A DNA stretch of 64,000 nucleotides, taken from assembly GCA_965226095.1 (NCBI GenBank), contig OZ245336.1, positions 143,472 through 207,471 of the forward strand, in the 5' to 3' direction. The stretch is from Bdellovibrionales bacterium. GTDB lineage: Bacteria; Bdellovibrionota; Bdellovibrionia; Bdellovibrionales; UBA1609. The notes under the pieces are model-generated. The model ran no database searches. It was not told the DNA's origin and saw only the letters and a program-made list of their open reading frames with translations. Positions 1 through 33,896 of this stretch are shown here, in pieces. Numbering within the stretch: position 1 is the stretch's first letter; each line of letters begins with the position of its first letter. A program made the translations under genes and the position numbers.

Positions 1-207
1 ACCATTAATAAAAATGCCATTACTGGATTGAAGATCCACAATCGAAACGCCATGTTCATCCACTTCCAATTCAGCGTGTTTTTTAGAAACACCCGCCTCA
101 GGAATAACAATTTGACATTCCTCAGCCCTACCCAGAATATATTTTCCATCCTGAAGAGGTAATTCCTGTCCTGCTAGTTTTCCATTTAAAAATCTAATCG
201 CCCACAT
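1..207 (-). CDS. FHA domain protein (partial, C-terminus lies beyond window start)
   Basis: Own translation of the minus strand from ATG at 207: MWAIRFLNGKLAGQELPLQDGKYILGRAEECQIVIPEAGVSKKHAELEVDEHGVSIVDLQSSNGIFING. This is the FHA pattern (GR..C.I.....VSK.HA.L.....V.DL.S.NG..ING). Not in the ORF track because it runs off the edge. Its start overlaps the stop of the upstream gene by 14 nt. Confidence 0.75.
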   Translation of the reverse strand, partial: MWAIRFLNGKLAGQELPLQDGKYILGRAEECQIVIPEAGVSKKHAELEVDEHGVSIVDLQSSNGIFING

Positions 208-550
208 AGAGTTGTTCTCCTATCTGAATACGATGCTTCTTTAAAGCCGGAGTTTTTAACTCAAACACAGAATGAGTTTTGGAAAATAAAGAAGGACTCA
301 CTATTTTCCAAGGCAACACCTGTTGAAACACAGCACTCACCTGCAAAGCTTTTGTCACAAAAATCAAATCAATTGGAAAATACATAAAGAAAGTATGAAT
401 ACCACCCCAGCAGGGTTTAATCCAAAAAGCTTCTGATATAGGCATATCTTTTCTACCCATCAAACCTACTGTACGGGAAAAAAAAGTTTTGGCTTCAATA
501 ACATTTTGCGCCAATACCTGGTTGTTTGTTTTATTGATGAGGCGAAGCAT
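194..550 (-). CDS. DUF192/COG1430-like small protein
   Basis: 118 aa. The GLMGR...FWI.PC.GIHTFFM.FPIDLIFV pattern recalls the DUF192 family. A 2-nt gap separates it from the upstream tadC-like gene. Confidence 0.55.
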   Translation of the reverse strand: MLRLINKTNNQVLAQNVIEAKTFFSRTVGLMGRKDMPISEAFWIKPCWGGIHTFFMYFPIDLIFVTKALQVSAVFQQVLPWKIVSPSLFSKTHSVFELKTPALKKHRIQIGEQLYVGD

Positions 551-552
551 TT

Positions 553-1461
553 TTATACGCCTCCTCCATATATAAATTGAAGTCCTACAGGAGCAAAAAC
601 AGCAATAAACACAGCTGGCAAAATAAAAGCCACCATAGGAAGCAACATTTTCTGAGAAGCTTTTGCTCCTGCCTCTTCCGCTCGTGAAAAACGCTCATGT
701 CTCATTTGTTCTGATTTGGCTTTGAGTGTTTTAGCCACACTGGCTCCTGTCTCATCTGAATCAATAATCATCGTACAAACACTGGTGACTTCATCAATAT
801 CCAATCTTTTGGACATAGACATTAAAGCATCTTTACGAGAACTTCCTAATTTCAGATCTTTTTGCAAAATTAAAAACTCATCTCCTAACACGCTGTCTTT
901 CACTTTCTCTGTCAACTTTTGTATAGCTCCAAAAAAATCCAAGCCGGCTTCTGTACTCAAAGCCAATAAGTCCACAAAAAAAGGAAGCTCTATAATGATA
1001 GAACCATAACGTTTGTTTTTTTGACTGTTACAATACATTTGAGGAAAATAAAAACCAAAAACAGCTATTCCAATACTTGCTATATAAGGGTAGCCCATAC
1101 TCAAAGCAAAATTAGCTATAATAAAAAATAAAGGAAACATAGCTCCCCATAAAATCTGTAGACCAATAAACTCGTCGACATTGAGTTCTCTCTTTAAGCC
1201 TGCAGTCAGAATTCTATTTTCTACTTTTTCCCGATACTTTGGTGATTTGATTTTTTTAACATGTTGAAGAGTTAAGCTATGCACTAAGGGTCTGGAAAAT
1301 TGAATTAAGGGCATTTTAGAACGCACTGGTTCATCATCCTCTGCCCAGGCCAAAGAAGAAGCCCCACTATTCCTTCCGAACAAACTAATACAAAAAAGAT
1401 AAACAGCCAGTGCGCCTATAGCTAAACCAGCTATTAAAAAAATTAAGTCAAAGTCTATCAT
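553..1461 (-). CDS. Type II secretion system F-family membrane protein (TadB/TadC-like, Flp/Tad pilus assembly)
   Basis: 302 aa with an N-terminal TM segment and two C-terminal TM segments. The central LPFFVDLLALSTEAGLDFFGAIQKL block is typical of the T2SSF domain. Confidence 0.7.
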   Translation of the reverse strand: MIDFDLIFLIAGLAIGALAVYLFCISLFGRNSGASSLAWAEDDEPVRSKMPLIQFSRPLVHSLTLQHVKKIKSPKYREKVENRILTAGLKRELNVDEFIGLQILWGAMFPLFFIIANFALSMGYPYIASIGIAVFGFYFPQMYCNSQKNKRYGSIIIELPFFVDLLALSTEAGLDFFGAIQKLTEKVKDSVLGDEFLILQKDLKLGSSRKDALMSMSKRLDIDEVTSVCTMIIDSDETGASVAKTLKAKSEQMRHERFSRAEEAGAKASQKMLLPMVAFILPAVFIAVFAPVGLQFIYGGGV

Positions 1462-1904
1462 TCACTCCTCACCTTCCTTCATAAGTTATCGGTATTTTTA
1501 TTAAAAACATAAAAAAAACTGCAAATTTTATAGTTAATTCATAGTTTGAAGGCTCTACTTACAGAATTCTTATTCATGTGAAGCAGCTTATAAGAAGCTA
1601 AGTAAAAGTTTTTATAAGCAGGGCTTTAGACCTATTGTGTAAACATTTTTCTAAAATCCAATCCGGTGAATAGGATATGTTTTGCATTATTTCTAATGGT
1701 AAACTCTATTCAAAAAAATAAAAAAGCTAACGCATGGAATAAGTATTAGCTTTGTTGATTTTTTTTTTTTAATCTTCTGAGGCAAGAGCTGGATGCTTTG
1801 GTTTTTACAACTGTTCGGTAAAAATCTAAGAACAAGGATGTTCTTCTTTTAACTGGTTTCAATGGATTGAAGCTTTTGTAAGAAACCTTAAGCAGAGGAA
1901 AAAA

Positions 1905-2462
1905 ATGAAACTCGATCCAGATACTCTACTTACTAAAACATTCTCTCGTAAAAACTTTGGAGGATATAGTAAAACTGAGGTGGTTGATTTTCTTAAATCA
2001 ATGGCTGAAGAATTAAAAGAACACCTTAAGCAGAAACAGGACTTTTCTGAAAAACTCATGGAAACAGAAGCTTTTGTACGAGAGTATCGTGACCGGGAGG
2101 AAATGTTAAAAAGCACCATAACAACTGCACAACAAATGTCTAATAAAATTAAAATAGATGCAGAAAAAGAAGCGCAATTTATATTGGCAGATGCCAAGCA
2201 AAAAGCTGAAATAATTGTCAAAGATGCTAAAAATTCCTTAAAGAAATCTTATCAGGACTTATCTGATTTAAAGCGTTTGCACATTCAATTAAAAAACACC
2301 TTAAAATCTGTATTACAATCTCATCAGGATCTTTTGGATCAGGGACATTACCCTACAACGTTCACTGCTTCACAAAAAACAGAAAATTCAGAAGAAACGC
2401 TCATAGAACGAAAAGTGGCGGAAACACTCAATCAGGCTGTACAAGCTAAAGATTATTTATAA
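1905..2462 (+). CDS. divIVA: DivIVA-domain cell-division/polarity protein
   Basis: The N-terminus LTKTFSRKNFGGYSKTEVVDFLKSMAEEL matches the DivIVA signature (F....RGY...EVD.FL). A coiled-coil region follows. RBS-like GAGGAAAAAA lies before the ATG. Confidence 0.75.
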   Translation: MKLDPDTLLTKTFSRKNFGGYSKTEVVDFLKSMAEELKEHLKQKQDFSEKLMETEAFVREYRDREEMLKSTITTAQQMSNKIKIDAEKEAQFILADAKQKAEIIVKDAKNSLKKSYQDLSDLKRLHIQLKNTLKSVLQSHQDLLDQGHYPTTFTASQKTENSEETLIERKVAETLNQAVQAKDYL

Positions 2463-2534
2463 ACAATTTTCAATATCAGCTCTAAGACCTGTTCCAACTT
2501 GAATTAATGATTTGAACCAGTTAAAATTTTTTAT

Positions 2535-3242
2535 ATGAATTTTTATTTATTCTTTACATTCTTTCTACTTATAGCTTTTTTTCAATTGTCATGTATCGAA
2601 AACAACACAAATGAAAATGACACTCCCTCTTGTTTGCAAAATGAACAATGCACTGACCGTTGCAATGAGCTATTTAAAAGTAATGAGGAATCTTCAAGTA
2701 AATGTTTAAAATTAACAGAAACAGAAGTGAGTAAAATAGAAAAAACTCTTTCCGCTATTAAAACACAACAATGGAGCAGCATTGATGAACATGAATTAAG
2801 AGCACTCTTAAATATCAATAAAGATCTCTGGCTTAAATATATTCATACCAATCGAAAACATGCTCAGGAGATGTTGTTGTGGCTGGCAGAAAACCCTGAT
2901 ATTGGAAGACAAATGAAGGACACCGATGAAATTTTCAGAAAAGCTTTTAAAACACTGTCACAAACTCAAGGAAATCGGGCTTTTATTGAAGGGTTAAAGA
3001 CAATCATAGACACAGAAAATAACAAAACTTTTCTCGAAATTTGTGCTGAAAAAAATAACGATCTTCCTTTTGAAAAGGTTCATAAAATCTTAGTTCAAGA
3101 GTGCAATAACAGCACATCTTGTATTAAAAGCCTTTATTGTGATCTGAATAAGGCCCTTGTATTTGCCAAGCTTAACAAGTTGGGATTAGGTGGCGAAGCT
3201 GATCAGGACGGAGACAGCTTACATAGTGACGAATGCACATAA
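2535..3242 (+). CDS. Hypothetical secreted/possible lipoprotein, Cys-rich
   Basis: 235 aa. Hydrophobic N-terminus ending FFQLSC. About 10 Cys residues. No family recognised. Confidence 0.5.
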   Translation: MNFYLFFTFFLLIAFFQLSCIENNTNENDTPSCLQNEQCTDRCNELFKSNEESSSKCLKLTETEVSKIEKTLSAIKTQQWSSIDEHELRALLNINKDLWLKYIHTNRKHAQEMLLWLAENPDIGRQMKDTDEIFRKAFKTLSQTQGNRAFIEGLKTIIDTENNKTFLEICAEKNNDLPFEKVHKILVQECNNSTSCIKSLYCDLNKALVFAKLNKLGLGGEADQDGDSLHSDECT

Positions 3243-3246
3243 TTTG

Positions 3247-5007
3247 TTACATTTGTTCCGGTGCGGAAATAGCCAGGTAAGACAACCCTTCTTTTAAAAC
3301 CAATTGCACTGCTTTTACCAAGGCCAGGCGGGTGTTTTTTTTCTGTTCATCCGTAAGAGAACCAATAGGACAACTTTGGTAAAACTGTGAAAATTTACGG
3401 GCTAAATCAAACAAGTAATAACACACAGAAGATGGTTTCATTTGGCGAGTGCTTTTTTCCATAATCAAAGAAAACCAAGATAGGTGTATCAGCAATTGCC
3501 ATTCTTCTATTTGCTCAATTTTTTGTAAATCATAATTTTTTACTTTTTTATGTTTGTTTAACAAAGTACAGGCTCTGGCGTGGGCATATTGAATGTAGGG
3601 ACCGGATCGGCCGTCCAGTTTTAACCACTCTTCCATATCAAAAACGATTTTTTTATTCATGTCCTGTTCATTCATGCCGTACTTAATAGCTCCCTCGGCA
3701 ATGATCTTGGCAGTGTGATTAATTTTCTTTTCTGTCCATTGCTTGTTCTCTTTATATTTATTTAAAAAATTAGTTTTTATATAAGACTGCATAGTATCTA
3801 TCAACTCCATAATGGGAACAATATTGCCTGCACGGGAACTCATGGGACCGGATTTTAATTCCACAAAATTATATTTGAGATGTTGCGATTTTTTTGCCTG
3901 ATCAGGAAAACCTATTTGACTAAACACTTGTAATACCTGTTGAAAATGTTTTTCCTGCCTTTGATCCACAACATAAATATTTTTAAAAATTTTAAAATCT
4001 TCAAATTTTTTCTTTATCAGATATAAATCCTTCGTGGCATAAAGACCGTTGCCGTCTGACTTCAAAAGTAAGCAAAACCCCAGTTTTTCACCTAAATCCA
4101 GACCAATGGCCCCTTCGGAGAGTTGCAGTTTTTTCTGACGATAAAGCTCTTTAATCCATGCCACAGAGGGTTTATCCACTTCAGACTCCCAGTACCACTT
4201 ATCAAAATTAACGCCAGCCCACTGATAGATCTCCTTCATTAAATCATGGCTCCACTTTCTAGTCTTTTTCCACAGAAGATAAAACTCCCCTTTTTTCTTA
4301 TAAAGCTGTTGCAAAATCTCTGTGATTTGTTGCTCAGTGATTTCCTTATTATTTTTTTGTTCTTCTTCAAACATCCGCCAGGCCCCAGTATAAACTTTCC
4401 CCAGCCATTCCCCTTTTCGATGAGCTGGCACCCTTTCTTTATTATGGTGCTTTAAATACCACAAACATTTGGCCACATGAGTGCCAGAATCCCCTGGAAA
4501 AGTGCATGTTTTGACTAAAAATCCTCTTTTTTTCAACAAAGTCACCAGTGCCAGGCCGAAACAGAGGTTTCTTAAGTGACCGATATGCAATTCTTTATGC
4601 GTGTTGGGCTGAGAGTATTCGATAAGATAAGAGGTTTTTTGTTTGCCTCGATTTTTCATATCAAACAATTGCCCTTTAAGAAGAGGTTTTAATAAATATT
4701 CATTTAGAAAATCCGGCTGAAAAAATAAATTCACATAAGATCCTTCAGCATGGGCTTTTGTAAATACAGAGGACTGAGAGCAGTCTTTTGCCAATGATGT
4801 AGCTATCTCACCTGGATTTTTTTTAAGAGCTTTGCTGAGGAAAAAACAGGGCAATGCCCAGTGGCCCCACTCTTCCTGTGGTGGGCTGGTAAATACGCCT
4901 GCCAATTCCTCTGCTGACACCTGCACCTTGAACAGCTTGAAAATTATTTCTACCGTTTCCTGGCAGAGTTTTTTTGTAAAAGTATCCAGAAAAAGAGGCT
5001 GTTCCAT
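3247..5007 (-). CDS. argS: Arginine--tRNA ligase
   Basis: 586 aa. Class I HIGH motif (PNTHKELHIGHLRN), an MSSRAGN (KMSKS-equivalent) motif, and a C-terminal DALR-type anticodon-binding region. Confidence 0.93.
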   Translation of the reverse strand: MEQPLFLDTFTKKLCQETVEIIFKLFKVQVSAEELAGVFTSPPQEEWGHWALPCFFLSKALKKNPGEIATSLAKDCSQSSVFTKAHAEGSYVNLFFQPDFLNEYLLKPLLKGQLFDMKNRGKQKTSYLIEYSQPNTHKELHIGHLRNLCFGLALVTLLKKRGFLVKTCTFPGDSGTHVAKCLWYLKHHNKERVPAHRKGEWLGKVYTGAWRMFEEEQKNNKEITEQQITEILQQLYKKKGEFYLLWKKTRKWSHDLMKEIYQWAGVNFDKWYWESEVDKPSVAWIKELYRQKKLQLSEGAIGLDLGEKLGFCLLLKSDGNGLYATKDLYLIKKKFEDFKIFKNIYVVDQRQEKHFQQVLQVFSQIGFPDQAKKSQHLKYNFVELKSGPMSSRAGNIVPIMELIDTMQSYIKTNFLNKYKENKQWTEKKINHTAKIIAEGAIKYGMNEQDMNKKIVFDMEEWLKLDGRSGPYIQYAHARACTLLNKHKKVKNYDLQKIEQIEEWQLLIHLSWFSLIMEKSTRQMKPSSVCYYLFDLARKFSQFYQSCPIGSLTDEQKKNTRLALVKAVQLVLKEGLSYLAISAPEQM

Positions 5008-5256: not shown

Positions 5257-6129
5257 TTAGTTGGCGTATCTGCAGTTTCGCTTTATTTCCCACCTTTTTG
5301 CTATTTGTGCTCTTTCTTCTCTTATATTCATTACTTCTGTTAAAGCAACATCAAAAGATTCTTTGAATGTTTTTCCAACACGCAGATTTCTAGAAGTATG
5401 TACAAGCACACCAAAATAGTTAGGACGACCTTCTGTCCAGGATAAAGCTTCTACCAAGTTATGTAACATATCACGTACGTTCTCTACTGCTGCTGGATCC
5501 TGGTTGTCTGGATTTCGTACATCCTTTTTGCCACTAACTCTGGCAATAAGATAAGCTATCGCTTTAACTTCTAGAGCTGTGAGCTGAGCCTTACCTTCAA
5601 CAACTTTTTGTTGGAATCCCAACAAATTATCTTTCAGACGTTTGTCAATAACTTTTCTACCTTTTAATGTTACACCATTTACAACATCACTTAATCTAGC
5701 TACTGTTTCAGATTTTAATTTATTTGTAAAACCACTCAAAAGCCCACGGCTCTGGTTTGCTGAAGCTAACGAACCAATATCAAATCCTTGCTTTACAACT
5801 CGTCCATTTTCACTAGTACGAGCGCGTACATTTTCACTAGTACGAAGTAAATCCCCATTTCTACCTGGATCCAATGCTGGATCCAATGCGTCCTGATATA
5901 GATCTCTAACATGAAACATAGGACTAGGAGGCTTCACAGGCTCACCTAATCGAGCGCTCTCTGTAACTTTTGCAGCATTTAGATCAAGCTGATTAACAAG
6001 ACCTTGATAAGCATCTTTTGTTCTCAATGCTGGATTTTTAACGTCTTTTGTTCGCCCTTTTGCTTCACTATACATGCTGGCAAAAAGCAGGGTTGAAAAA
6101 ATAAGTGTAGATAAAATTTTCGTGCTCAT
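5257..6129 (-). CDS. Hypothetical secreted protein (orphan)
   Basis: 290 aa. Signal-peptide-like N-terminus MSTKILSTLIFSTLLFASMYSEAKG. Micro-duplications are present (DALDPALDP; RTSENVRARTSENGR). RBS AAGGAG lies upstream. No family recognised. Confidence 0.6.
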   Translation of the reverse strand: MSTKILSTLIFSTLLFASMYSEAKGRTKDVKNPALRTKDAYQGLVNQLDLNAAKVTESARLGEPVKPPSPMFHVRDLYQDALDPALDPGRNGDLLRTSENVRARTSENGRVVKQGFDIGSLASANQSRGLLSGFTNKLKSETVARLSDVVNGVTLKGRKVIDKRLKDNLLGFQQKVVEGKAQLTALEVKAIAYLIARVSGKKDVRNPDNQDPAAVENVRDMLHNLVEALSWTEGRPNYFGVLVHTSRNLRVGKTFKESFDVALTEVMNIREERAQIAKRWEIKRNCRYAN

Positions 6130-6266
6130 GTTATTACTCCTTCTTCTTTTAACAATTCTTTATAACAATTTCTAAAACCAGCTTGTACTACAAAAAATCA
6201 AAAATCAAAAACCTTTTTTTCATTTTTTTATTTAAGAATGAAATATTTTCATAGTTTTAATTTTTC

Positions 6267-6283
6267 TGTGAAAATTTTTCATG
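6267..6283. promoter_or_regulatory. Candidate operator, palindrome TGTGAAAATTTTTCATG
   Basis: Lies in the divergent intergenic region between the 5257..6129 (-) and 6477..10946 (+) genes. The 14-mer GTGAAAATTTTTCA recurs at 6376-6389, and a close variant sits at 35775-35791. Confidence 0.5.
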
Positions 6284-6374
6284 CTTTCTCCCTTTATTAT
6301 AGTCACTATTCAAACCCAAAATCAAATTATCATAATTAAAATTAAATTCCCTTACTGTATGATTTTTTAATAAC

Positions 6375-6391
6375 CGTGAAAATTTTTCACA
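6375..6391. promoter_or_regulatory. Candidate operator, palindrome CGTGAAAATTTTTCACA
   Basis: 7-bp arms GTGAAAA/TTTTCAC around a central T. It lies 86 bp upstream of the 6477 start. Centre-to-centre distance from the 6267-6283 copy is 108 bp. Confidence 0.5.
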
Positions 6392-6476
6392 CAGCCCAAA
6401 TATTCCTTTTGTTTTTCTTTTCTTGCCTATATATTGACTCAAAACAGCAATTATAAGCAAGAAAAAAGGATTTTAA

Positions 6477-9400
6477 ATGCAAACATCTTTATTTTATCGA
6501 TTTTTACTCATATTACTTTTGCTCTTCAATCCCATCAGCTCTTTAGCAAATAAAGGCGAACCTCCTAAAGACGGTGAACCTCCAAAGGAGGATCTAAACA
6601 TCCATATCGATAGAGCTGATCGAGAGGAGTTAAATAAATTTAAGCCCTCTAATATTACTCCCGCTGATGTAAAGTTTATGGAAAAGCAATTTAAAAAGCT
6701 GGGAGAAAACCTTCAGAACCTAGAAGGAGGTATCATACACAATTTTACAGGCGAACGCACAATAAGAGATCAAAATGGTAAAAAAATGAAAGTACGGGTA
6801 CGAGGGCCGATAGAGAAAATGCGCTATCAAACACGACATTTTCCAGCAGAAGCTTTTATTTTTTATTCCGCTATTGGTGCCACTATGGCCACTAAAGCTT
6901 GGGTGGAAGCTGGGAATGGGCGTACAGACCCTATGTGGCTCAGTAATTTATATCATGAACTCACCTCTCCGGTTGGACTATTCAGTTTTTATTGTTTTTT
7001 ACTGGCCAGCGGACAAACTGGATACGCTTTCGCCAAATTATGGAACCTGGAAAAAAAATTAGCAGGTGTGAAAGCTCAAATGGCAATAGTTCAAGGAGCA
7101 AAAAATTCCGGACAACTCACAAAAGAGTTATTAAAAAGACAAAAAAGATTACAAAGAGGTTTAAGGTGGCAAAACACTATTGTCGGGCAAGCAGGTCTGG
7201 CAATGGGTATTTTTGCTTCTAATGTAGTGACAGAATTTTATTACGTCATGCAAAGCCCAACTTGGGATCATTGTATAAAGGAAATATTCAGGAAAGATAA
7301 AACATTAATCTCCCAAAACCATGCGCTTCAGTGTGATTTACTTGCTGATGAAGCATGGGATACAATTCGTTCATGGGGTCCAGCTGTACTTTCCGTATTA
7401 TCAGCTTCCTTGATTTCCTCTGCACTTATGGAAGCCTCTGCAATTAATAAAGGGGTGCAAAAATTAAATAAGCTAAGACATGGCATAAAAGAGGGAATAG
7501 CCGACATAAAAACACAAGAAATACCAGTTAAAAAACAAATTAAATTGCCTTTTATCAGCAATCTAAATATTAAATATTCACCCACTACTTTAAGCAAGTG
7601 GAGAAAATATGTCGCACTGGCTACCCTTACTCCTATTGTTAAGGTTGCACAATGGGGTGTTAAATTTATCAATCTGGTCGGATTTATGTTGATCGATGAA
7701 CATTTGACCCACAAAATGTTTGAACCAATAAATGAATATTGGATTTTAGGAGATCTAAGAGGTGGTATAGACAACTTTATAGGACAATATGCCCGCATGA
7801 ATCCAGATGAAGATGGCCTAATATGTGAAACAAATAATGATTGTGAATATCATCCCGTGCTGGTATCTGCCCATGAAAGCGCTCAGCAATTTTCACAATG
7901 GAGACAATATAAATCACTTATACTTACGGGAGCTCACCATAATTGGCTGATGTATATCAATAAGGCCACAGGCGCTGCTATGGCGGCACAACAAATTTAC
8001 ACCCAACTTGTCCAGGCATCTACTGATTTACATTCTAATTTTAATAAGGAACATTATTTTATTTCCGAAGAAGATTCTTTTACAGAATATGAATCAACAT
8101 TAATTAAAGATATGAGGAAAACTGGAGCTGAAATTAGTGAGCTTGAAGAAAATATCACCAGGCTGGAGAAGAGCTTAGAGGAGTCTTCAGAAGAAAACTC
8201 ATCTTCTGAAGAACAAAAAATATTTGCTCCTCTTGATTTAATTTCTAAATCCAAGAGACAAATTACAATGGCAGAAAGAATTAATCTATTTGCAGAAGCT
8301 CTAGATGAATTAAAAGACTATAAAAATGCAAATAATATTAATTGTCAAAACCAAACAGCTAAGCTTCAACAACTAGAGTTAGTGAACCCTAATATTTCCC
8401 CTCACCCGGACTATTACTTCCTACAATTAAAAAGGACCTCCCAATCTTCTTATTTATGGACAGATGCTGAAAGAGCTTGCATTTTAGAAGCTATGTTTAA
8501 CACCATTTATTCTTCTAATATTGAACCATTTTTTACAGATAGTGATTCAGCAAAACAACAAGCTGAAGATATTATTAAAGCTACTATGGGTGGCATATCA
8601 GAAGCAGAAGAACTCCGTACATGGGGTCGTGATTTACTAAGAAAAAAAGTGTTATCAGCCGGATTGGAGCTTCTTGGAACAATATCCATACAAATGCGGC
8701 GTAAAATTAATGATGAAGCACATATTCCAGTAATAAATAGTTATATTCCTCGATCTGACAAAAGACAAAAAAGAATTGATGATCAGATAGCACAAAATAT
8801 TTTTGTGAAACTACATGAAAAAATGAAAGTAATCAGATCTTATCCTCGTGGTGAACTCTATACACAAAAAATAAATAATCACTATAACAACCTTACCGAA
8901 CAGGAAGGTCATCAGTTCATACCAGCATTGTTTGATTTTAACATATTCCGCAATGATCGCATGACAGATTTTATGCTGAGTTCATTCTTATGTGGTGAAA
9001 ACGAGGAGATATTTAAAGATATTAATCTTGATCGGGGTGGTATTTTAAACAGATTAGATCAAGGGGATCACCCGACAGATATAATAGATGATGAGCTTTC
9101 TGCTGTAAGCAGGAATTTTAATGGTACATATTACACATCAGTATTGCCTCGCTTTCCAGCTTTGAAACTAAGTGATCAAGAGTTAAGCCAATTATGTTCA
9201 GAACGTATAAACACTCTAAGTACTAGAACCGGCGTTTCCACGAGTTATCTCCCTGTCAAGGTAGGTAATAGAAGTTATCCCAACCTTTTACATTTGGTAT
9301 TAGATAATATTGACATAGAACAATTAAGAAATCTTGCTATCCCTTTCATGGAAAAAGACAAACTGGAAGATATAGAAATGCTCCAATCAAGCATAGAAAC

Positions 9401-10946
9401 ACTCCAAGCAAACATAGATGAATGGGTAAAGATATATAACGAATTGAACAGCAGTTTCATAGAGGATTTTGTAGAACGAAGACAGGAATTTATTCAGAAT
9501 TTTTACAAAAATATATATCCAGGGATAGCAGAGCGGGCACTAAAAAATGAAGAAATTACACAAGAGGAGTTTCACATAAAGGAAGAGTTATGGACTTCTA
9601 TTCGGGATAAAATAGACAATAACCAATTAGCACAAATGTCACAGGACGAAATTAATGACTTTAAACAAACTTTAGCACGAGAAATTGACAATAGTCCCAC
9701 AGCACTGAAAAATGCACAAACAACATTAGAAAATTGGCAAACAAGCAATACAAATGAAACCATAAAAACAATAGAACCTGCTCATCTTTTTAGTATATGG
9801 TGGGAAAATACTATTACGCCTTCAATAGATTATTTTCTATCTTTATCCAAAGGAGAATTTGAAGATATGAGAGACTATCAATTCCCTGGACCTTTATTTC
9901 AAAATACAGTAGAAGAAATAGATTTAGTAATTAATAATACAATAGAAGGGAACAAACTCATAGAACTGTTTCCATCCTTAGTAGCAAATAATCAATTAAG
10001 TAGTTCTATATTCATTTCACCTCTTATGTCCGCAGATTTTGGGATTACACCATCGTATTCTTCAATTATGACGCATAAACATACTCTAAATCTAAAAGTA
10101 CCGGAAGGTATTTTTGCCAATATTCATTTTGAAATGACTTATTGGGCAGATTTAATTATGAATATGGCAAAAAGAAAAAAAGAACTGGATCCTGATGCTC
10201 ATATCGATTTGGCCACTCTTAAACAGCAATTAAACACCTTTACCGACATGTATGATGTAGATAAACTCTCTTATGATATACAACCTATGCTGGTGGGAGG
10301 AAATGATATAATGGAACCTTTTAATCCTGAAGATCGTGAGTCTGCTTATCTTTGTCATGAGCAAGGTACGGAAGGCGCCTGGTATAATCCTATCACCTGG
10401 TGGGGTTATGTAAAAAATTCTTTTATGCCTGTGCAGGTGACTCAGGAATGTTCTCTTCATTACAGATCCTTTTACTACCATTGGTTTCAGGATGATGAAG
10501 ATAAATATTTCCAAAAGAAAAGATGTTTAAGAGCTAACTATCTGCCAAAAAAAATGGGAGAACAATTTGGTATCGACATTAATGTATTATATAGCCGCCA
10601 AATGGATAGTAACTATGATCGTCAAATTGGCGCTTTTGGAGAAAGTGAAATACATGAAAATAAAAGTAGCGACAGTAACACATTATTGGATCAACTCTTA
10701 AAGTATGCTTTACTTCGATTAAATGTGCTGGAAGTGGAAATGAGCCAGGCAATAACTATGCGGTGGGACCCTGCTGTTGATAAAACAGAACAACATCATG
10801 ATTATATGCTAAATCCAACAATACCTTCCACAGGGAAAAACTCGTGTGACAATTATATTGAGGAATTCGATGCCTTGATAGACTCCAAAGTCGAACAAGC
10901 AATGGAAGAAGCGGAGCTAGCTGAAGAAGTGGAAACACAGCCTTAA
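6477..10946 (+). CDS. Giant orphan membrane/secreted protein (1489 aa)
   Basis: Signal-like N-terminus, then GEPPKDGEPPKE. About 4 hydrophobic TM-like segments fall within aa 120-325. Long acidic coiled-coil-like stretches follow, and the C-terminal part is rich in Trp, Tyr and Cys. It is the only long ORF across 4.5 kb. No family recognised. Confidence 0.7.
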   Translation: MQTSLFYRFLLILLLLFNPISSLANKGEPPKDGEPPKEDLNIHIDRADREELNKFKPSNITPADVKFMEKQFKKLGENLQNLEGGIIHNFTGERTIRDQNGKKMKVRVRGPIEKMRYQTRHFPAEAFIFYSAIGATMATKAWVEAGNGRTDPMWLSNLYHELTSPVGLFSFYCFLLASGQTGYAFAKLWNLEKKLAGVKAQMAIVQGAKNSGQLTKELLKRQKRLQRGLRWQNTIVGQAGLAMGIFASNVVTEFYYVMQSPTWDHCIKEIFRKDKTLISQNHALQCDLLADEAWDTIRSWGPAVLSVLSASLISSALMEASAINKGVQKLNKLRHGIKEGIADIKTQEIPVKKQIKLPFISNLNIKYSPTTLSKWRKYVALATLTPIVKVAQWGVKFINLVGFMLIDEHLTHKMFEPINEYWILGDLRGGIDNFIGQYARMNPDEDGLICETNNDCEYHPVLVSAHESAQQFSQWRQYKSLILTGAHHNWLMYINKATGAAMAAQQIYTQLVQASTDLHSNFNKEHYFISEEDSFTEYESTLIKDMRKTGAEISELEENITRLEKSLEESSEENSSSEEQKIFAPLDLISKSKRQITMAERINLFAEALDELKDYKNANNINCQNQTAKLQQLELVNPNISPHPDYYFLQLKRTSQSSYLWTDAERACILEAMFNTIYSSNIEPFFTDSDSAKQQAEDIIKATMGGISEAEELRTWGRDLLRKKVLSAGLELLGTISIQMRRKINDEAHIPVINSYIPRSDKRQKRIDDQIAQNIFVKLHEKMKVIRSYPRGELYTQKINNHYNNLTEQEGHQFIPALFDFNIFRNDRMTDFMLSSFLCGENEEIFKDINLDRGGILNRLDQGDHPTDIIDDELSAVSRNFNGTYYTSVLPRFPALKLSDQELSQLCSERINTLSTRTGVSTSYLPVKVGNRSYPNLLHLVLDNIDIEQLRNLAIPFMEKDKLEDIEMLQSSIETLQANIDEWVKIYNELNSSFIEDFVERRQEFIQNFYKNIYPGIAERALKNEEITQEEFHIKEELWTSIRDKIDNNQLAQMSQDEINDFKQTLAREIDNSPTALKNAQTTLENWQTSNTNETIKTIEPAHLFSIWWENTITPSIDYFLSLSKGEFEDMRDYQFPGPLFQNTVEEIDLVINNTIEGNKLIELFPSLVANNQLSSSIFISPLMSADFGITPSYSSIMTHKHTLNLKVPEGIFANIHFEMTYWADLIMNMAKRKKELDPDAHIDLATLKQQLNTFTDMYDVDKLSYDIQPMLVGGNDIMEPFNPEDRESAYLCHEQGTEGAWYNPITWWGYVKNSFMPVQVTQECSLHYRSFYYHWFQDDEDKYFQKKRCLRANYLPKKMGEQFGIDINVLYSRQMDSNYDRQIGAFGESEIHENKSSDSNTLLDQLLKYALLRLNVLEVEMSQAITMRWDPAVDKTEQHHDYMLNPTIPSTGKNSCDNYIEEFDALIDSKVEQAMEEAELAEEVETQP

Positions 10947-14612: not shown

Positions 14613-16301
14613 GGGAATGCCGGTAGGGATAGCACTAAGTAATTTTTTAGTGTAATCATCCTGAGGACGAGCATAAATATCTACAGAAGAATTATGCTCA
14701 ACCACTTTCCCTTTATTCATGACACAAACTTCATCAGAAATAAATTTCACCACCGCCATGTCATGAGAGATAAAAATATAAGTTAAGCCCATTTCTTCCT
14801 GTAGATCCAAAAGCAGGTTAATAATTTGAGCTTGGATGGATACATCCAAGGCTGAAACACATTCATCACATATAATAAACTCCGGTTGAACAGCCAAAGC
14901 ACGGGCAATGCAAACCCTTTGTCTTTGTCCACCGGAGAATTCATGCGGATAACGATGAAGCATCTCGGAGGTTAAACCTACTCGCTCCATAAGGGCTTCT
15001 GCCTTTTTCAACCGCTCTTTTTTATCCGCCCCCAGTTTATGAATCAACATAGGCTCCATAATAGCGGAACCAATAATCATTCTTGGATTTAAAGAAGCAT
15101 AAGGATCTTGAAAAATCACCTGCATTTTTTTTCTAAGAGGTTGCATTTCCTTCCAAGATAAGTTCATAATATTTTGATTCCTATAAAAAACCTCTCCGGC
15201 AGTCAGTGGAAGCAATCGTAAAATAACTCGGCCCAAAGTAGTTTTTCCACAACCGGATTCCCCAACTAAGCCTAAAGTAGCACCTTTTTGTACAGTAAAA
15301 GAAACATCATCGACTGCTTTCACCCAAGACTGAACAGTTCCAAAAAAATTCTTTTTAAGAGGAAAATATTTTTTTAAATTTTTTATTTCCAATAAAACTT
15401 CACTATTTGATAAACTTTTTACGACTTTCTTTTCTGGCTCTTTTGGATCCAAGGGCTTCCCCTCTTCATCCATGTAATCATTCATCACCGGTAAACGATG
15501 ACAATCCTTGTCCAGAGTAGGCCTGCAAGCGATCAAACCACGAGTGTAGGGGTGCTCCGGCTGAGAAAATACTTCAGCTGTACTCTTATGCTCTACAATT
15601 TTCCCTTTATACATAACCAACACTTCATCCGCTATCTCTGCAATCAAACCCAGATTATGAGTAATAAATAAAATACTCATGGAATATTTTTGCTGTAAAT
15701 TCCTTAACAACTCCATAATCTGTTTTTGAATAGTCACATCCAGGGCTGTCGTCGGTTCATCCGCAATAAGTAAATCCGGACTACAAGCAATAGCCATTGC
15801 AATCATTACTCGCTGTCTTTGTCCCCCACTGAGCTGATGAGGATAAGATTTGATTCGCTCCTGTGGTTCTTTAATTTCCACTTGTGTCAGCAATTCAATA
15901 GACTTTTCCCAGGCTTTCTTCTTGGATAAACCCTGGTGCAAAATCAAAGCCTCTGAAATCTGATTACCAACAGTAAAAACCGGATTCAAACTGGACATAG
16001 GCTCTTGGAAAATCATGGAAATTTTATTGCCTCGAATTTTTCGCAAAGCCGGCTCCGGTAAAGATAAAATATCTTGCTTATCCAAAAAAATTTGTCCGGA
16101 GGAAATGCGCCCAGGAGGTTCTGGAATCAATCTCATCATGGATAAAGCCGTCACACTTTTGCCGCTACCGGATTCCCCCACTAAGCCTATTGTTTTTCCT
16201 TTTGGAATATCAAAAGATACTCCTTTGACAGCATGTATAGTTTCCCTATTATCAATAGAAAAATCCACTGATAAATTTTTAACTTGTATTAAAGGTGACA
16301 T
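14607..16301 (-). CDS. ABC transporter ATP-binding protein with duplicated ATPase domains (DppD/DppF-fused, GsiA/YejF-like)
   Basis: Two Walker A motifs (GESGSGKS; GESGCGKT), two LSGGQRQR signatures and two Walker B motifs. The preferred start MSPLIQVKNL at 16301 follows a GAGGAA RBS. The ORF extends to 16319. Confidence 0.9.
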   Translation of the reverse strand: MSPLIQVKNLSVDFSIDNRETIHAVKGVSFDIPKGKTIGLVGESGSGKSVTALSMMRLIPEPPGRISSGQIFLDKQDILSLPEPALRKIRGNKISMIFQEPMSSLNPVFTVGNQISEALILHQGLSKKKAWEKSIELLTQVEIKEPQERIKSYPHQLSGGQRQRVMIAMAIACSPDLLIADEPTTALDVTIQKQIMELLRNLQQKYSMSILFITHNLGLIAEIADEVLVMYKGKIVEHKSTAEVFSQPEHPYTRGLIACRPTLDKDCHRLPVMNDYMDEEGKPLDPKEPEKKVVKSLSNSEVLLEIKNLKKYFPLKKNFFGTVQSWVKAVDDVSFTVQKGATLGLVGESGCGKTTLGRVILRLLPLTAGEVFYRNQNIMNLSWKEMQPLRKKMQVIFQDPYASLNPRMIIGSAIMEPMLIHKLGADKKERLKKAEALMERVGLTSEMLHRYPHEFSGGQRQRVCIARALAVQPEFIICDECVSALDVSIQAQIINLLLDLQEEMGLTYIFISHDMAVVKFISDEVCVMNKGKVVEHNSSVDIYARPQDDYTKKLLSAIPTGIPA

Positions 16302-16548: not shown

Positions 16549-16696
16549 AATCTTTACAGCTTAAAGATACTGAAAGGGCTGACTCTCTTATTAACCATGT
16601 AATCTTTACATCTTCTCTATAAAAATTTGCAATGCTCATTTTTCTCCTATAGGATGCTCACTAATTGATGAAAAATAAGTGGAAAAAGGATTGAAC

Positions 16697-18349
16697 ATGA
16701 AAAATTTTAAATCTTTTCTATGGTTATTATGTACACTAGGTATCTTTCATTCTTTCGCCCAGGATCTCCCCTCTATTCCAGAAGTTATTCAACAAGCTCA
16801 ACATTCAGTTTATAAAATAACAAAAAAAGACATACCTGGAAATGGAACGGTTTTTTTTATATCCCCCACTCTCTTTGTTACCAATTTTCATGGAGTGGGA
16901 AGCTTGAATTTAGAAGATGAAAAATTCGACGAAATACAATTATATCAACAAGAACAACTTAGTCCTTTAAAAATAAAACAAGTGGTCGCTATATCAGCCT
17001 TATTTGATTTGGCGATATTGGAAACACATACACCAGTTGATTCTTATCTAGCTATCAATGGACAAGCACCTACATCCTATAAAGATTTATTTACTATTGG
17101 ATATCCACACAATACTTTAATCATACAAAAGAAAACAGGAAATCTTTTAAACTGGGAACATAATTATTGTTTTCTAATCAATCAATCTGCTTTTGAAGAT
17201 TCTAACGGCTCCAGCGGCAGTCCTGTGCTCAATCAACAAGGTGAAGTGGCCGGAGTAATTTATTCTGGTATTTTTAATCTGCAGAATTCCATCAATCCAG
17301 ATAAAATAGAACAATTAATAGCTAATGAAATAGGTACAAATTGTACTCATTTTGATAATATAAAAAGTTGTATAGATAACGAACTGAATTTTGTTGAAAA
17401 CGAAATCCAACAGGGTAATGGATTTGCTCAATATCTCGGAGCCATTCAATGGAGTATCTCCCATAAATCCCGACTCCTATATAATATGATACAATCCTTG
17501 AATAACATGACTGTAGAAGAACAAGATCAGTTTCTTACTGAAATGGATAATCAATTTCACACATTAGATGCACAAACTCTTCATTGGAATACACTATCTG
17601 CTCAACAAGGTTATGCCCCCGCCCAATATGCATTGGGCCTCTCTCACTATACCAGAGAACATATGGAGCCAGACCTAGAGCAAGCTTTTTATTGGATCAA
17701 AACAGCCGCAGAACAAGGCTACGCTCCAGCTCAATATATGCTAAATATTTTTTATCATGATGGAGAGGGCTCTCCAAAAAATAGCCAACAGGCTATAAAT
17801 TGGTTGATTCAATCTGCTCATCAAGGTTATATGCCAGCTCAATTAGAATTAGCTGCTACTTATTCTATAGGAGATGACATTGAAGCAAAACCATTAAAAG
17901 CTTTTCAATGGTATAAAAAATCAGCTCAAGAAGGTTCCAAGATAGCTCAATTTATTTTAGCCATAACTTATATGGAGGGAGATGGAGTACAAAAAAACTG
18001 GAATGAAGCCTTTTATTGGATGAAGCAATCTGCAGAACAAAATTACGCTGATGCTCAAAGCGGACTGGCCACTATGTACTATAATGGAGATGGAACTGAG
18101 AAAAATGTTGAGCAAGCATTCTACTGGACTCACAAAGCGGCGGAGCAAGGTGATTTGGAATCCCAATTTAGATTATTCGTCCTTTATCACAATGGAGAGG
18201 GTGTGGCACAAGATATTGAACAAGCTCATCAATGGCTGGAAACAGCGGCTGAGGGAGGTCATAAAGACGCACAAGAAGAATTAAAGGAACACTTTGAATC
18301 CAATTCACCTATCATAGATTGGATTAAAGGATTATTTTCCGATTCATGA
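16697..18349 (+). CDS. Secreted trypsin-like serine protease domain fused to Sel1 (SLR) repeats
   Basis: Signal peptide MKNFKSFLWLLCTLGIFHSFA. The N-terminal half carries GSSGSPVLNQQGEVAGVIY (the S1/S1C-type GxSGxP active-site context) and DLAILE. The C-terminal half has about 8 Sel1 repeats (A.QGYAPAQY.LG..Y..G.G). The ORF track begins at GTG 16679. Confidence 0.75.
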   Translation: MKNFKSFLWLLCTLGIFHSFAQDLPSIPEVIQQAQHSVYKITKKDIPGNGTVFFISPTLFVTNFHGVGSLNLEDEKFDEIQLYQQEQLSPLKIKQVVAISALFDLAILETHTPVDSYLAINGQAPTSYKDLFTIGYPHNTLIIQKKTGNLLNWEHNYCFLINQSAFEDSNGSSGSPVLNQQGEVAGVIYSGIFNLQNSINPDKIEQLIANEIGTNCTHFDNIKSCIDNELNFVENEIQQGNGFAQYLGAIQWSISHKSRLLYNMIQSLNNMTVEEQDQFLTEMDNQFHTLDAQTLHWNTLSAQQGYAPAQYALGLSHYTREHMEPDLEQAFYWIKTAAEQGYAPAQYMLNIFYHDGEGSPKNSQQAINWLIQSAHQGYMPAQLELAATYSIGDDIEAKPLKAFQWYKKSAQEGSKIAQFILAITYMEGDGVQKNWNEAFYWMKQSAEQNYADAQSGLATMYYNGDGTEKNVEQAFYWTHKAAEQGDLESQFRLFVLYHNGEGVAQDIEQAHQWLETAAEGGHKDAQEELKEHFESNSPIIDWIKGLFSDS

Positions 18350-24121: not shown

Positions 24122-24240
24122 GGCAAGATCACAACTTCATAAAATTTTTATTTGCTTCACCAGGATTTTATGTCTATTATCTATTTTGTTATTATCAATA
24201 AATGGACTGTTAAAAAACAGTGATAGAGTGGAGGTCTACT

Positions 24241-24714
24241 ATGGCAGCAAAGAAAAAAACTAAGAAAACAGTAGCTAAAAAGAAAACAGTAGCTAAAAAG
24301 AAAACAGTAGCTAAAAAGAGAAAGCCAGCTAAAAAGAAAACAGTAGCTAAAAAGAGAAAGCCAGCTAAGAAGAAAACAGTAGCTAAAAAGAGAAAGCCAG
24401 CTAAAAAGAAAACAGTAGCTAAAAAGAAAAAGCCAGCTAAGAAGAAAAAAACCAAGAAAAAAAGAAAGTTAAATCCAGCTTTGATGAGAACTTTAGATGC
24501 CACTGACAAATTGGCCGCTGTTGTGGGACACAAAAAGATCACAAGACAAAAAGCCATCAAGTACTTTTGGGATTATGTAAAGAAACGCGATCTTCAGGAT
24601 TCCAAAGACAGAAGAAACATCAATCTGGATGACACGTTAAAAGTTCTTTTTGGCAATAAAAAACAAGTCAGTATGTTTGATGCAACCAAGGTGATTAGTA
24701 AGAACTTATCGTAG
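24241..24714 (+). CDS. Lysine-rich (histone H1-like) tandem repeat fused to a SWIB/MDM2 domain
   Basis: The ATG at 24241 follows a GGAGG RBS (the ORF track starts at GTG 24220). The N-terminus has KKTVAK x3 followed by KKTVAKKRKPAK x4. The C-terminus LDATDKLAAVVGHKKITRQKAIKYFWDYVKKRDLQDSKDRRNINLDDTLKVLFG matches the SWIB consensus. Confidence 0.85.
   Translation: MAAKKKTKKTVAKKKTVAKKKTVAKKRKPAKKKTVAKKRKPAKKKTVAKKRKPAKKKTVAKKKKPAKKKKTKKKRKLNPALMRTLDATDKLAAVVGHKKITRQKAIKYFWDYVKKRDLQDSKDRRNINLDDTLKVLFGNKKQVSMFDATKVISKNLS
24262..24445 (+). repeat. Coding tandem repeat (18-bp then 36-bp units) encoding KKTVAK / KKTVAKKRKPAK
   Basis: The units AAGAAAACAGTAGCTAAA and AAGAAAACAGTAGCTAAAAAGAGAAAGCCAGCTAAA can be read directly as repeats in the sequence. 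Confidence 0.9.
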
Positions 24715-27766: not shown

Positions 27767-28015
27767 TGACTTATATCCAAAAGTTTTCTGTATATAGTTC
27801 CCAATCAGGTTTGAAAGTATGTGTAAGATATTACTATACCTTTCTTTCAAAATAAAAAAAACAAATTATTTATAGCATGAACATTTTACACAAAAAATGT
27901 AATTTTTATTCAGATTCTCACAGCCAATTTAAATTCGATTAAACTCCCTTAAACTTCTTTAATAATCAGGAGCTAAAATATTGACTCCTGATGAGCTTCC
28001 ACTTAATTATTGACC

Positions 28016-28792: not shown

Positions 28793-29815
28793 TTATGCCT
28801 CTACTTCTGCCATCATTTGCTGTGAAGGGGGATGAACAGCAAATTTATCGAAAACACCATACTCATGCAAACGATTATAAAGTGTTTTCACTGTAATCCC
28901 TAAAGACTTGGCGGCTTCTCTTTTAGAACGAGAGGATTCCAAAGCACTTAAAATATACATCTTATTGACTTCTGCCAAAGTAATCCCTGGAGTATAAGGC
29001 ACTTTGGATTTTTGCTGGCTCGGCAATAATTCATCCGGTAAATGTTCTTTCTTAATAACATTACCAGTATTTAAAATAATTAGTCTTTCACAAAGATTTT
29101 TAAGTTCCCGAACATTACCAGGCCATGTGTGCTTCATTAAAATATCCAACACCTCTTTTTCCAGCTCCACTGTTTTATTTAAAAAGTGTTTTAATAAAAC
29201 AGGAATATCATCCACTCTTTCTGATAAAGAAGGAATAGTGAAGGCAATGGTATTAATACGATAGAGTAAGTCTTCTCTGAATCGACCTTTTAAGACCTCT
29301 TGAGATAAATCCTTACTGGTGCAACAGAGCACTCTTACATCTAACTGAAGAGCTTGTTTTGCGCCTACTCTGTAAACTTCATTGTTTTCCAAAAATCTCA
29401 AAATTTTAACCTGCGCTTTAAGACTTAAATCGCTAATTTCATCCAGAACCAGAGTTCCTTCATCAGCGGCTTCCAATAATCCTATTTTTTGTCGATCCGC
29501 GCCGGTAAAAGCTCCTTTTTCATGACCGAATAATTCACTTTCAATAATATTCTCATTCAAACAACTACAATTAATTACAATAAAAGGTTGGTCTTTTCTG
29601 TAACTTCCATTGTGAATTCTTTTGGCAACCATTTCCTTACCGGTACCGCTCTTTCCCGTAATCAATACTGAAGAATCGGTAGAAATCACTTTATCCACTA
29701 ATGTAAGAACTTTTTTCATAGCCTCAGAGGAGTAAACTATTTTATTCTCTGAATCTAAGCTTTTAATTTGTCCCATCGGAGTGTTACCCTGACCTTTATT
29801 TAAATATGGAATCAT
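28793..29815 (-). CDS. Sigma54-dependent transcriptional activator (AAA+ plus C-terminal HTH, no N-terminal sensory domain)
   Basis: 340 aa. Walker A GKSGTGKE, the ESELFGHEKGAFTGA (GAFTGA) motif, and a C-terminal Fis-type HTH (AAKSLGITVKTLYNRL). Only about 25 aa precede the AAA+ core. Confidence 0.88.
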   Translation of the reverse strand: MIPYLNKGQGNTPMGQIKSLDSENKIVYSSEAMKKVLTLVDKVISTDSSVLITGKSGTGKEMVAKRIHNGSYRKDQPFIVINCSCLNENIIESELFGHEKGAFTGADRQKIGLLEAADEGTLVLDEISDLSLKAQVKILRFLENNEVYRVGAKQALQLDVRVLCCTSKDLSQEVLKGRFREDLLYRINTIAFTIPSLSERVDDIPVLLKHFLNKTVELEKEVLDILMKHTWPGNVRELKNLCERLIILNTGNVIKKEHLPDELLPSQQKSKVPYTPGITLAEVNKMYILSALESSRSKREAAKSLGITVKTLYNRLHEYGVFDKFAVHPPSQQMMAEVEA

Positions 29816-29938
29816 TTACTTTTTCTCCTTCCTTGGTTTTATGCAAAGTGTCTCATAATAAGACAGTGCATTATACTTACCAAAGTCCTGAAATTTTTTC
29901 AATAGCAATATGTAAATTTTTTATAGAAAAGTGTAAAA

Positions 29939-33591: not shown

Positions 33592-33665
33592 GGTGGCGTA
33601 GCTCAGCTGGATAGAGCAACAGCCTTCTAAGCTGTAGGTCGTAGGTTCGAATCCTACCGCCATCA
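33592..33665 (+). tRNA. tRNA-Arg (anticodon TCT)
   Basis: Hand-folded cloverleaf. Acceptor GGTGGCG/CGCCATC, D arm GCTC/GAGC, anticodon arm ACAGC-CTTCTAA-GCTGT, T arm GTAGG-TTCGAAT-CCTAC, discriminator A. CCA is not encoded. Confidence 0.92.
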
Positions 33666-33688
33666 TTTTTTAAATGACTATTTATAGT

Positions 33689-33720
33689 TATTTAAAAAAT
33701 GATAGGATAGGATTCGAAGC
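33689..33720 (-). repeat. Inverted, diverged copy of the tRNA-Arg 3' end plus its downstream flank
   Basis: The reverse complement reads GCTTCGAATCCTATCCTATCATTTTTTAAAT. The native sequence at 33645-33675 reads GTTCGAATCCTACCGCCATCATTTTTTAAAT. Confidence 0.7.
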
Positions 33721-33873: not shown

Positions 33874-33896
33874 CTTGGACATAACTTGATGTATTA

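Follow-up and report, generated by a model that had tools for sequence, protein, structure and literature searches.

Archaeal Lrp/AsnC-type regulators (feast/famine regulatory proteins) bind 13-mers of the form abcde-WWW-e'd'c'b'a'; FL11 from Pyrococcus was crystallized on the duplex TGTGAAA[AAT]TTTCACT, and its natural consensus is TTGAAA[AAT/ATT]TTTCAA (PMC2715240). Lrp-type sites cluster at spacings of two or three helical turns (PMC2995911), and the CRP, HcpR, and FNR sites of delta-proteobacteria read TTGTGA-N6-TCACAA (PMC545781). The subject of the present analysis is a stretch of 64,000 nucleotides, hereafter the window, from a Bdellovibrionales bacterium (contig OZ245336.1, positions 143,472–207,471), in which a 13-bp palindrome, TGAAA-N3-TTTCA, recurs in the control regions of genes for orphan secreted proteins and of a gene for a sigma-54 activator. 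The arms TGAAA/TTTCA are identical to those of the FL11 operator, and the FL11 duplex resembles the best window sites almost base for base; an A/T-only centre and sites about three helical turns apart are likewise common to FL11/Lrp-type systems and the window (PMC2995911). However, the host of FL11 is archaeal, whereas the window belongs to the Bdellovibrionota. FL11 and Lrp act on amino-acid metabolism, whereas the sites in the window stand at secreted orphans and the sigma-54 activator. The optimum of FL11 in SELEX is CGAAA, with C at -1, whereas the window sites have G or A at that position.

The palindrome occurs non-randomly, is restricted to control regions, keeps a strict spacing, and is conserved while the products of the genes behind it diverge. 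From these computed properties we infer binding by a protein, the sign of the regulation, and the family to which the protein might belong. With a probability of about 0.75, the copies are predicted to be operators of one two-fold symmetric homodimeric regulator acting at promoters that do not depend on sigma-54. In kind, this would be an ordinary palindromic bacterial operator, and its worth is that of a solid regulon prediction. Searches of the literature turned up neither the motif as an established bacterial site nor palindromic motifs of Bdellovibrio, and we know of no regulatory knowledge for this uncultured, small-genome branch of the Bdellovibrionota. The features that set it apart are the perfection of the sites, the fixed 30-bp geometry of one pair, and the contrast between frozen control DNA and hypervariable exported products. 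A conserved operator provides a computational handle on the enigmatic orphan exported proteins of this organism, and the site at the sigma-54 activator gene predicts a two-tier cascade.

Occurrence and conservation of the palindrome

The conserved unit is the 13-mer palindrome TGAAA-W3-TTTCA (extended form RTGAAAWWWTTTCAY) and not TGTGA/TCACA. Its working consensus is RTGAAA-WWW-TTTCAY, with an R just outside the left arm and a Y just outside the right one. The window contains seven exact copies of TGAAA-N3-TTTCA (Table 1), six of which fall in non-coding DNA, although non-coding DNA makes up 5,428 bases, i.e., 8.5% of the window. Under Markov models of order 1 and order 3, trained on the window's non-coding bases and simulated 1,500 times each, 0.06 non-coding copies are expected, and not one simulation of either order exceeded two. 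When the spacer was varied from 0 to 11 bases, lengths other than 3 gave 0–2 matches each in the window, none of them intergenic, and the everted arrangement TTTCA-Nn-TGAAA gave two matches in total, a single one of which is intergenic (spacer 11). All 11 one-mismatch cores of the window lie within coding sequence. Because of this enrichment, the exclusive N3 spacing, and the coding location of every one-mismatch copy, the element is all-or-none and spacing-specific, and it is restricted to control regions. The three central bases are A/T in all six intergenic copies, and the orthologues with an exact core retain the W3 centre with one exception, ACT in L011. Beyond one or two bases, the flanks of the seven copies have nothing in common.

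The original prediction had described a 17-bp unit whose outer TG/CA belonged to the recognition sequence. Its coordinates are right, namely 6267–6283 (TGTGAAAATTTTTCATG), 6375–6391 (CGTGAAAATTTTTCACA), 35775–35791 (TGTGAAAATATTTCACA), 60489–60505, and 29889–29901, as is the distance of 108 bp that it gave between the centres at 6275 and 6383. Both copies that it placed in the divergent region between the 5257–6129 and 6477–10946 genes are present, but a third exact copy, site 1, had been overlooked. The 17-bp unit itself does not hold up, since the outer bases vary between orthologous sites: among orthologous copies, the outer dinucleotide is AA, GA, AG, CC, CT, or TA, while TGAAA is constant. 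Searched with up to two mismatches, the 17-mer is found 6 times where 1.14 matches are expected, and none of 100 shuffles attains 6; its matches at 21179 and 30286 are in coding sequence and look like noise. The copies at 60489 and 29889 had been ranked as weaker relatives. They do exist, but both carry the exact 13-mer core.

Table 1. Positions of the palindrome copies, of conserved blocks beside them, and of the genes regarded as targets
Feature	Position	Strand	Sequence	Location and distance of centre to ATG	Remarks
Site 1	6239–6251		TGAAATATTTTCA	centre 6245; -116 to the 290-aa gene (5257–6129)	exact core
Site 2	6269–6281 (earlier 6267–6283)		TGAAAATTTTTCA	centre 6275, 30 bp from site 1; -146 to the 290-aa gene	exact core
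Site 3	6377–6389 (earlier 6375–6391)		GTGAAAATTTTTCAC	centre 6383, 108 bp from site 2; -94 to the 1489-aa gene (6477–10946)	exact core
24-bp block	6350–6373	+	CCTTACTGTATGATTTTTTAATAA	directly 5' of site 3	identical in 5/5 sequences of alignment A1
Downstream block	6426–6443	+	CCTATATATTGACTCAAA		near-invariant in A1; one substitution (T to C, L013)
Site 29889	29889–29901		TGAAATTTTTTCA	-80 to the sigma-54 activator gene	exact core
Site 35777	35777–35789		CTGTGAAAATATTTCACAG	upstream of the tandem-repeat secreted-protein gene; about -104 from Met15	best palindrome, 19 bp
Site 60491	60491–60503		GTGTGAAAAATTTTCAT	between convergent genes, directly after a stop codon	exact core
Counterpart of 60491	in L017			about -110 to the 157-aa protein gene	one mismatch
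Copy 50405	50405–50417			in lon, within the 3' end of its coding region	treated as chance match; reads TGAAAAAATATCT in L017, not conserved
Target gene	5257–6129	-			290-aa orphan, signal-peptide-like N-terminus, hypervariable
Target gene	6477–10946	+			1489-aa orphan, signal-peptide-like N-terminus, hypervariable
Target gene	28793–29815	-			340-aa sigma-54 activator, AAA+ and HTH_8 domains (Pfam, NCBIfam); possible but unlikely binder
Target gene	34156–35721	-			secreted protein; 8.2 tandem copies of a 108-bp (36-aa) unit, 34361–35239

The window's own genome is a contig of 1,546,870 bp (~1.55 Mb), and its nearest named relatives are uncultured Bdellovibrionales/Oligoflexia genomes. Among GTDB representatives, the best ArgRS match is 58% identical, and the species of the window has no GTDB representative. 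The comparison covered syntenic loci from a 43-kb contig (L011), an 88,621-bp contig (L012 and L020), a 1,699,320-bp contig (L013, L015, and L017), and a 788,646-bp contig (L014), together with more distant loci from contigs of 1,495,206 bp (L016 and L018) and 1,335,755 bp (L019). ArgRS and OppB are 84–92% identical between the window genome and the relatives in which the divergent region was compared.

In the divergent region, sites 1, 2, and 3 keep their exact cores at the same positions in L011, L012, L013, and L014. In 5/5 genomes, exactly 30 bp separate the centres of sites 1 and 2, and this pair is the invariant geometric feature of the region; site 3 retains its position about 95 bp before the ATG. 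In the five-way alignment A1, the arm columns are invariant without exception (30/30), compared with 58% of the ungapped columns elsewhere (naive P ~8e-8), and only 5 of the 9 spacer columns are invariant. The spacer of site 2 varies (ATT, ACT, ATA) with its arms constant, site 1 begins AATGAAA, GATGAAA, or AGTGAAA depending on the orthologue, and site 2 of L013 reads CTATGAAA. At site 3, the flanking G and C are also retained in four relatives. Fixed arms with free spacers are the pattern expected of a protein that would read the arms and not the centre.

The products of the two genes that diverge from this region are conserved far less strictly. Between the window and its syntenic orthologues, the 290-aa protein, which has no Pfam or NCBIfam match, is 27–65% identical, and the 1489-aa protein, which combines hydrophobic segments with long coiled-coil-like regions, is 44–79% identical. 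Divergence this fast suggests that exported proteins facing a host or prey are under diversifying selection. The 347-bp control region that both orphans share is itself ~80% identical between genomes.

The most deeply conserved copy is that at 29889, which reads CCTGAAA...TTTCAAT. L015 and L020 retain its exact core in the same place, as do the distant L016 and L019 (alignment A2). In L016, the xer-like gene on its other side lies ~350 bp farther from the equivalent site, and the site is therefore assigned to the sigma-54 activator gene, whose product is 64–97% identical in relatives. The site at 35777 and its flanks are identical in L020, where they precede a 75%-identical orthologue of the repeat protein. 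Where the repeat-protein gene is absent, a decayed half is all that is left of the site: TGAAAACACAGTA in L015 and, at another L020 junction, gcGAAAAcag. This copy had been placed 54 bp upstream of its gene, which is true from the first ATG, but the distance is probably about 104 bp, since the orthologue alignment begins at residue 15 and the true start is thus probably Met15, the second Met, at 35679.

The copy at 60491 lacks an obvious target in the window. In L017, its one-mismatch counterpart lies upstream of an extra gene for a 157-aa signal-peptide protein that is missing from the window, so that 60491 appears to be an orphaned operator, the remnant of a promoter whose secreted-protein gene the window has lost. 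Two further candidates look accidental: the 50405 copy within lon is not conserved, and a half-site TGTGAAATAG near 50507, to which the original prediction had drawn attention, reads TGTAAAATAG in L017 and is taken as chance. A degenerate copy at 58950–58963 (TGAAATTTTTTTT; TGAAAAATTTTTA in L017, position 9848) lies upstream of the 485-aa orphan gene 59031–60488, ~45 bp before a TATAAT, and may be a weak or decayed site.

The enrichment and the footprinting in relatives, where the core is kept at orthologous promoters, bear out the earlier view that the palindrome is non-random and promoter-associated and that the genes for the 290-aa, 1489-aa, and tandem-repeat proteins have it in common in their control regions. 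The N-termini of all three proteins are signal-peptide-like. The idea of a module confined to the secretome survives in part: secreted-protein genes do carry sites, but the deepest-conserved site fronts the sigma-54 activator gene.

Predicted regulon and promoter geometry

The proposed regulator would recognize TGAAA in each of two consecutive major grooves, with an A/T-only centre of 3 bp between them. At the divergent locus, two dimers would occupy the same helix face at a distance of 30 bp, and a third would bind 108 bp away. Its regulon would comprise fast-evolving, lineage-specific exported proteins, namely the 290-aa and 1489-aa pair, the tandem-repeat protein, and, in the relative represented by L017, the 157-aa protein. 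Through control of the sigma-54 activator gene, the regulator would also sit above a sigma-54 cascade.

Downstream of site 3, the near-invariant block CCTATATATTGAC contains TATATT (6430–6435) with no recognizable -35 element. TATATT is most likely the -10 element of the 1489-aa gene promoter, in which case site 3 would be centred at about -57 to -59. The interval between site 1 and the 290-aa gene contains conserved, phased A-tracts (AAAAAATCAAAAATCAAAAAC). Considering the site geometry, the missing -35 elements, the distances of about -80 to -116 to the ATG, and the phased A-tracts, the secreted-protein genes would be subject to upstream activation. In front of the activator gene, the -35 position that goes with a partly conserved TATAAT may fall within the site, so that repression is possible there. 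The 24-bp block directly 5' of site 3 may be the site of a second factor or an upstream promoter element. In its left part, this block looks like one half of an SOS box of the E. coli type (TACTGTAT); the other half is missing.

A sigma-70 consensus scan of the divergent region gave weak, unconserved candidates only. The GG-N10-GC signature of sigma-54 promoters is absent from the divergent region and from the 50 bp beyond the divergent, repeat-protein, and 60491 regions; not even a GG dinucleotide occurs between site 3 and the ribosome-binding site or in the repeat-protein promoter. A search for sigma-54 promoters found no convincing intergenic one anywhere in the window, and the lone GG-N10-GC candidate near the sites, at 29882, has lost its GG in L016. 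Such promoters are recognizable in this clade when present, as L014 illustrates: at 20014, a perfect sigma-54 promoter consensus (TGGCACGCTTTTTGCT) stands before an L014-specific gene for a 224-aa protein. It is preceded there by a G+C-rich hairpin, CTGAAAGCCCTCTAGGGCTTTCAG.

A more far-reaching interpretation, which we regard as speculative, would make the protein, in a clade of small-genome (~1.3–1.7 Mb) Bdellovibrionota, a lineage-specific master regulator that switches on a hypervariable host- or prey-facing secretome and, via the activator, a second tier of genes. This would amount to an attack-phase or virulence-type switch in which the control DNA is frozen while the products evolve about as fast as antigens. 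Still more unusual would be the variant in which the GAFTGA-bearing activator itself binds the palindromes and acts at promoters without -24/-12 elements.

Candidate regulators

Several observations weigh against a common operator of the kind proposed, or against the family to which its anatomy points. The -10 assignments are guesses, and hence the sign of the regulation is weakly founded. The window sites are perfect, unlike natural Lrp-type sites, which are usually degenerate (PMC2995911). Neither the window nor ~200 kb of related loci, together a small part of each genome, yielded an Lrp/AsnC, CRP/FNR, or other obvious cognate gene, and comparison of the unannotated window proteins with NCBIfam revealed no hidden regulator. 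The earlier statement that the cognate factor is not encoded in the window goes too far: the window has no CRP/FNR or Lrp/AsnC gene, but the sigma-54 activator, with its HTH_8 domain, is a candidate binder, if a weak one. Metagenome contigs scanned for paired TGAAA-N3-TTTCA copies (120 contigs, L021–L140) gave a negative result for Lrp. Of the 62 Pfam families represented in 100 open reading frames flanking the pairs, none of the 25 commonest is AsnC-type, and a phmmer search with E. coli Lrp against these 100 frames returned nothing up to E = 10. Seven of the 100 are HSP20 genes, with a sigma-54 promoter-like match just downstream of each pair, and in L087 a gene for a CI-like repressor (HTH_3 + Peptidase_S24) adjoins two copies 30 bp apart.

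The metagenome pairs are organized in a regular manner. Their centre-to-centre spacings peak at 20–22 bp (51 pairs) and 29–30 bp (25 pairs), with a trough at 26–28 bp (5 pairs), and this helical phasing implies that in many organisms both copies of a pair share a face of the helix. The seven hsp20 loci (L027, L044, L063, L067, L119, L120, and L130) are on Bacteroidota-like contigs and carry TGAAAWWWTTTCA palindromes 20–22 bp apart, in two copies or, in L027, three. A match to TGGCAC-N5-TTG(T/C/A)A follows 13–33 bp downstream of the pair, mostly at 22–24 bp, and scores 8–10 of 11; the best is TGGCAC-N5-TTGTA in L120. Since a promoter-like match of this type follows each pair, an enhancer-binding protein is presumed to act there, and the loci look like an undescribed sigma-54-dependent small heat-shock regulon; a literature search on sigma-54 and Hsp20 in Bacteroidetes found no paper. 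The arrays in L032, L068, and L127 are 22–23-bp iteron-like repeats. Because at least three families read the 13-mer in nature, the 13-mer is not diagnostic of any one family. The probability ranges that we attach to the families overlap, and the remaining mass is unassigned.

Judged by site anatomy, the leading family is Lrp/AsnC. The copies are 13-bp palindromes built on the pattern abcde-WWW-e'd'c'b'a', the centre being A/T only, and sites 1 and 2 are clustered, 30 bp apart in five genomes, while the other promoters have single sites. Regulators of this family often control their own genes from sites nearby. The assignment is kept tentative, at low odds, because other families evidently read the same 13-mer elsewhere. 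The proposed homodimer could instead belong to another helix-turn-helix (HTH) family, XRE/CI-like, TetR-like, or MarR-like, in which case the likeness to FL11 would be accidental, as can happen with a short A/T-rich palindrome; this is a serious contender, to which we would give somewhat less than even odds. Odd-centred palindromes of 13–17 bp are common to many families, the CI-like repressor gene of L087 stands beside just such a pair, and the family frequencies of small genomes favour XRE-type proteins. The operators of lambdoid CI repressors are also 17-bp odd-centred palindromes in arrays of fixed spacing. In contrast to them, no window site has a repressor gene or a prophage context. Nothing specific speaks against these families; no gene of this kind was found beside any site in the window or the related loci.

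Far less probable is that the palindromes serve as enhancers or autoregulatory operators of the window's own sigma-54 activator, through its Fis-type HTH. In its favour, the control region of the activator gene itself contains a site, in the window as well as in four other loci, two of them distant; the product carries HTH_8 and could thus supply the DNA-binding domain of an enhancer-binding protein; and the hsp20 contigs imply that some enhancer-binding protein reads the same 13-mer. Paired 17-bp palindromes about three turns apart are common for activators of the NtrC type. The upstream activator sequences of NtrC and NifA and the TyrR boxes are, like the window sites, palindromes of 15–17 bp with the form TGT-N11-ACA and are often paired a few turns apart. 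However, upstream activator sequences accompany a -24/-12 promoter some 50–200 bp downstream, which the sites of the secreted-protein genes lack. The activator has Sigma54_activat, an AAA lid, and a C-terminal HTH_8, no N-terminal sensor domain, and an intact GAFTGA, with which it should act via sigma-54, yet no GG-N10-GC is found at the secreted-protein sites and the one such element, at 29882, is not kept in L016. Moreover, about 4 of the ~30 control regions of the window carry a site, so that one at a regulator gene is weak evidence of autoregulation.

A second palindrome complicates the assignment of an operator to the activator. TGTCTCA-N3-TGAGACA, at 29849–29865 (TGTCTCATAATAAGACA), is situated between the 29889 site and the activator ATG, is conserved in five genomes, and is perfect in L019 (TGTCTCATTATGAGACA). 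It is an equally possible operator of the activator itself and could alternatively form a hairpin in the 5' untranslated region. A weaker copy, TGTCTAAAAATTAGACA, occurs 117 bp away at 29966–29982, at the start of the xer-like open reading frame.

A regulator of the CRP/FNR family reading TGTGA/TCACA across an unusual 7-bp spacer is less probable still. The three strongest sites do read (T/C)GTGA...TCA(C/T)(A/G), and the predicted position near -57 to -60 resembles that of class I promoters, at which CRP-dependent activation uses a site near that position. CRP, FNR, and HcpR sites resemble those of the window in being palindromic, in the TGTGA/TCACA ends of the strongest copies, and in the likely upstream-activator position. 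Yet the spacer is N7 in all copies, one base longer than in those systems, and TGTGA-N6-TCACA has 0 matches in the window. CRP-type proteins depend on the outer T and G, and the two G residues of TGTGA are their main contacts, but these outer bases are variable, and the 29889 copy reads CCTGAAA; conversely, the inner AAA/TTT never varies, although CRP leaves it unspecified. The window also has no cNMP-binding or CRP-type gene. The CRP/FNR likeness noted originally therefore rested on outer TG/CA bases that vary and on a spacing one base too long, and it was the TGAAA/TTTCA arms that proved invariant.

A reading without any binding protein, in which the element represents an RNA hairpin such as a terminator or attenuator, a dispersed repeat resembling repetitive extragenic palindromes or miniature inverted-repeat transposable elements, or a by-product of A/T-rich DNA, is effectively refuted: the 60491 copy does lie directly after a stop codon between convergent genes and the genome is A/T-rich (~35% G+C), but gene loss explains that placement, composition predicts almost no copies in the simulations above, the unrelated flanks lack the extended similarity of dispersed repeats, the arms are invariant and not co-varying, so that sequence and not mere pairing is conserved, the hairpins are weak (-1.1 to -2.9 kcal/mol for four of six, -4.1 for site 3, and -8.3 for the 35777 site) and have no T-run, a terminator scan of the divergent region was empty, and an Rfam scan of the window gave two tRNAs only.

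Other binding systems were considered and set aside. The protein encoded at 50541–51785, which combines TPR repeats with a winged helix, is an unlikely binder, for OmpR-type domains usually read direct repeats and the supposed sites upstream of it, at 50405 and 50507, are not conserved. Rex (TTGTGAA-N4-TTCACAA), the ARG box, the Fur and Zur boxes, and the Bdellovibrio LexA box (TTAC-N3-GTAA) were rejected on geometry, parS (TGTTTCAC-GTGAAACA) for its everted arms, and Fis for its degenerate site, in which T-6 and G-5 are not specified.

Genomic context

The window has a G+C content of ~35% and mixes housekeeping genes (ArgRS, IleRS, ClpPX, Lon, trigger factor, shikimate-pathway enzymes, SerA, and NhaA) with orphans and with Sel1, SWIB, and TPR proteins. 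The window (24220–24714, 16679–18349, and 25595–27850) and L011–L013 (positions 1–3868) between them encode a SWIB-domain protein, several Sel1-repeat proteins, one of which is fused to a trypsin-like protease, and three consecutive FHA/YscD-like genes that adjoin a T2SS-F-like gene. The genomes of the clade measure only ~1.3–1.7 Mb, and this set of genes hints at a life in association with a host or prey.

The gene for the tandem-repeat protein lies within a variable island adjoining a tRNA-Arg gene. The 3' end of this tRNA (CGAATCCTACCGCCATCATTTTT) is duplicated 203 bp downstream (33648 and 33851) in a manner resembling an integration scar, within the region 33592–34155. In L015 (11321–12100), about four tandem units of ~60 bp, recognized by eye, end in a similar pseudo-tRNA 3' end. 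L020 shows, also by eye, a duplication of ~250 bp of the shikimate kinase/dehydrogenase 3' end (15537–15962 and 17484–17844); the intact operator and the orthologue of the repeat protein are found at one of the junctions, a decayed operator at the other. Judging from these junctions, the repeat-protein gene and its promoter seem to move or decay as a cassette.

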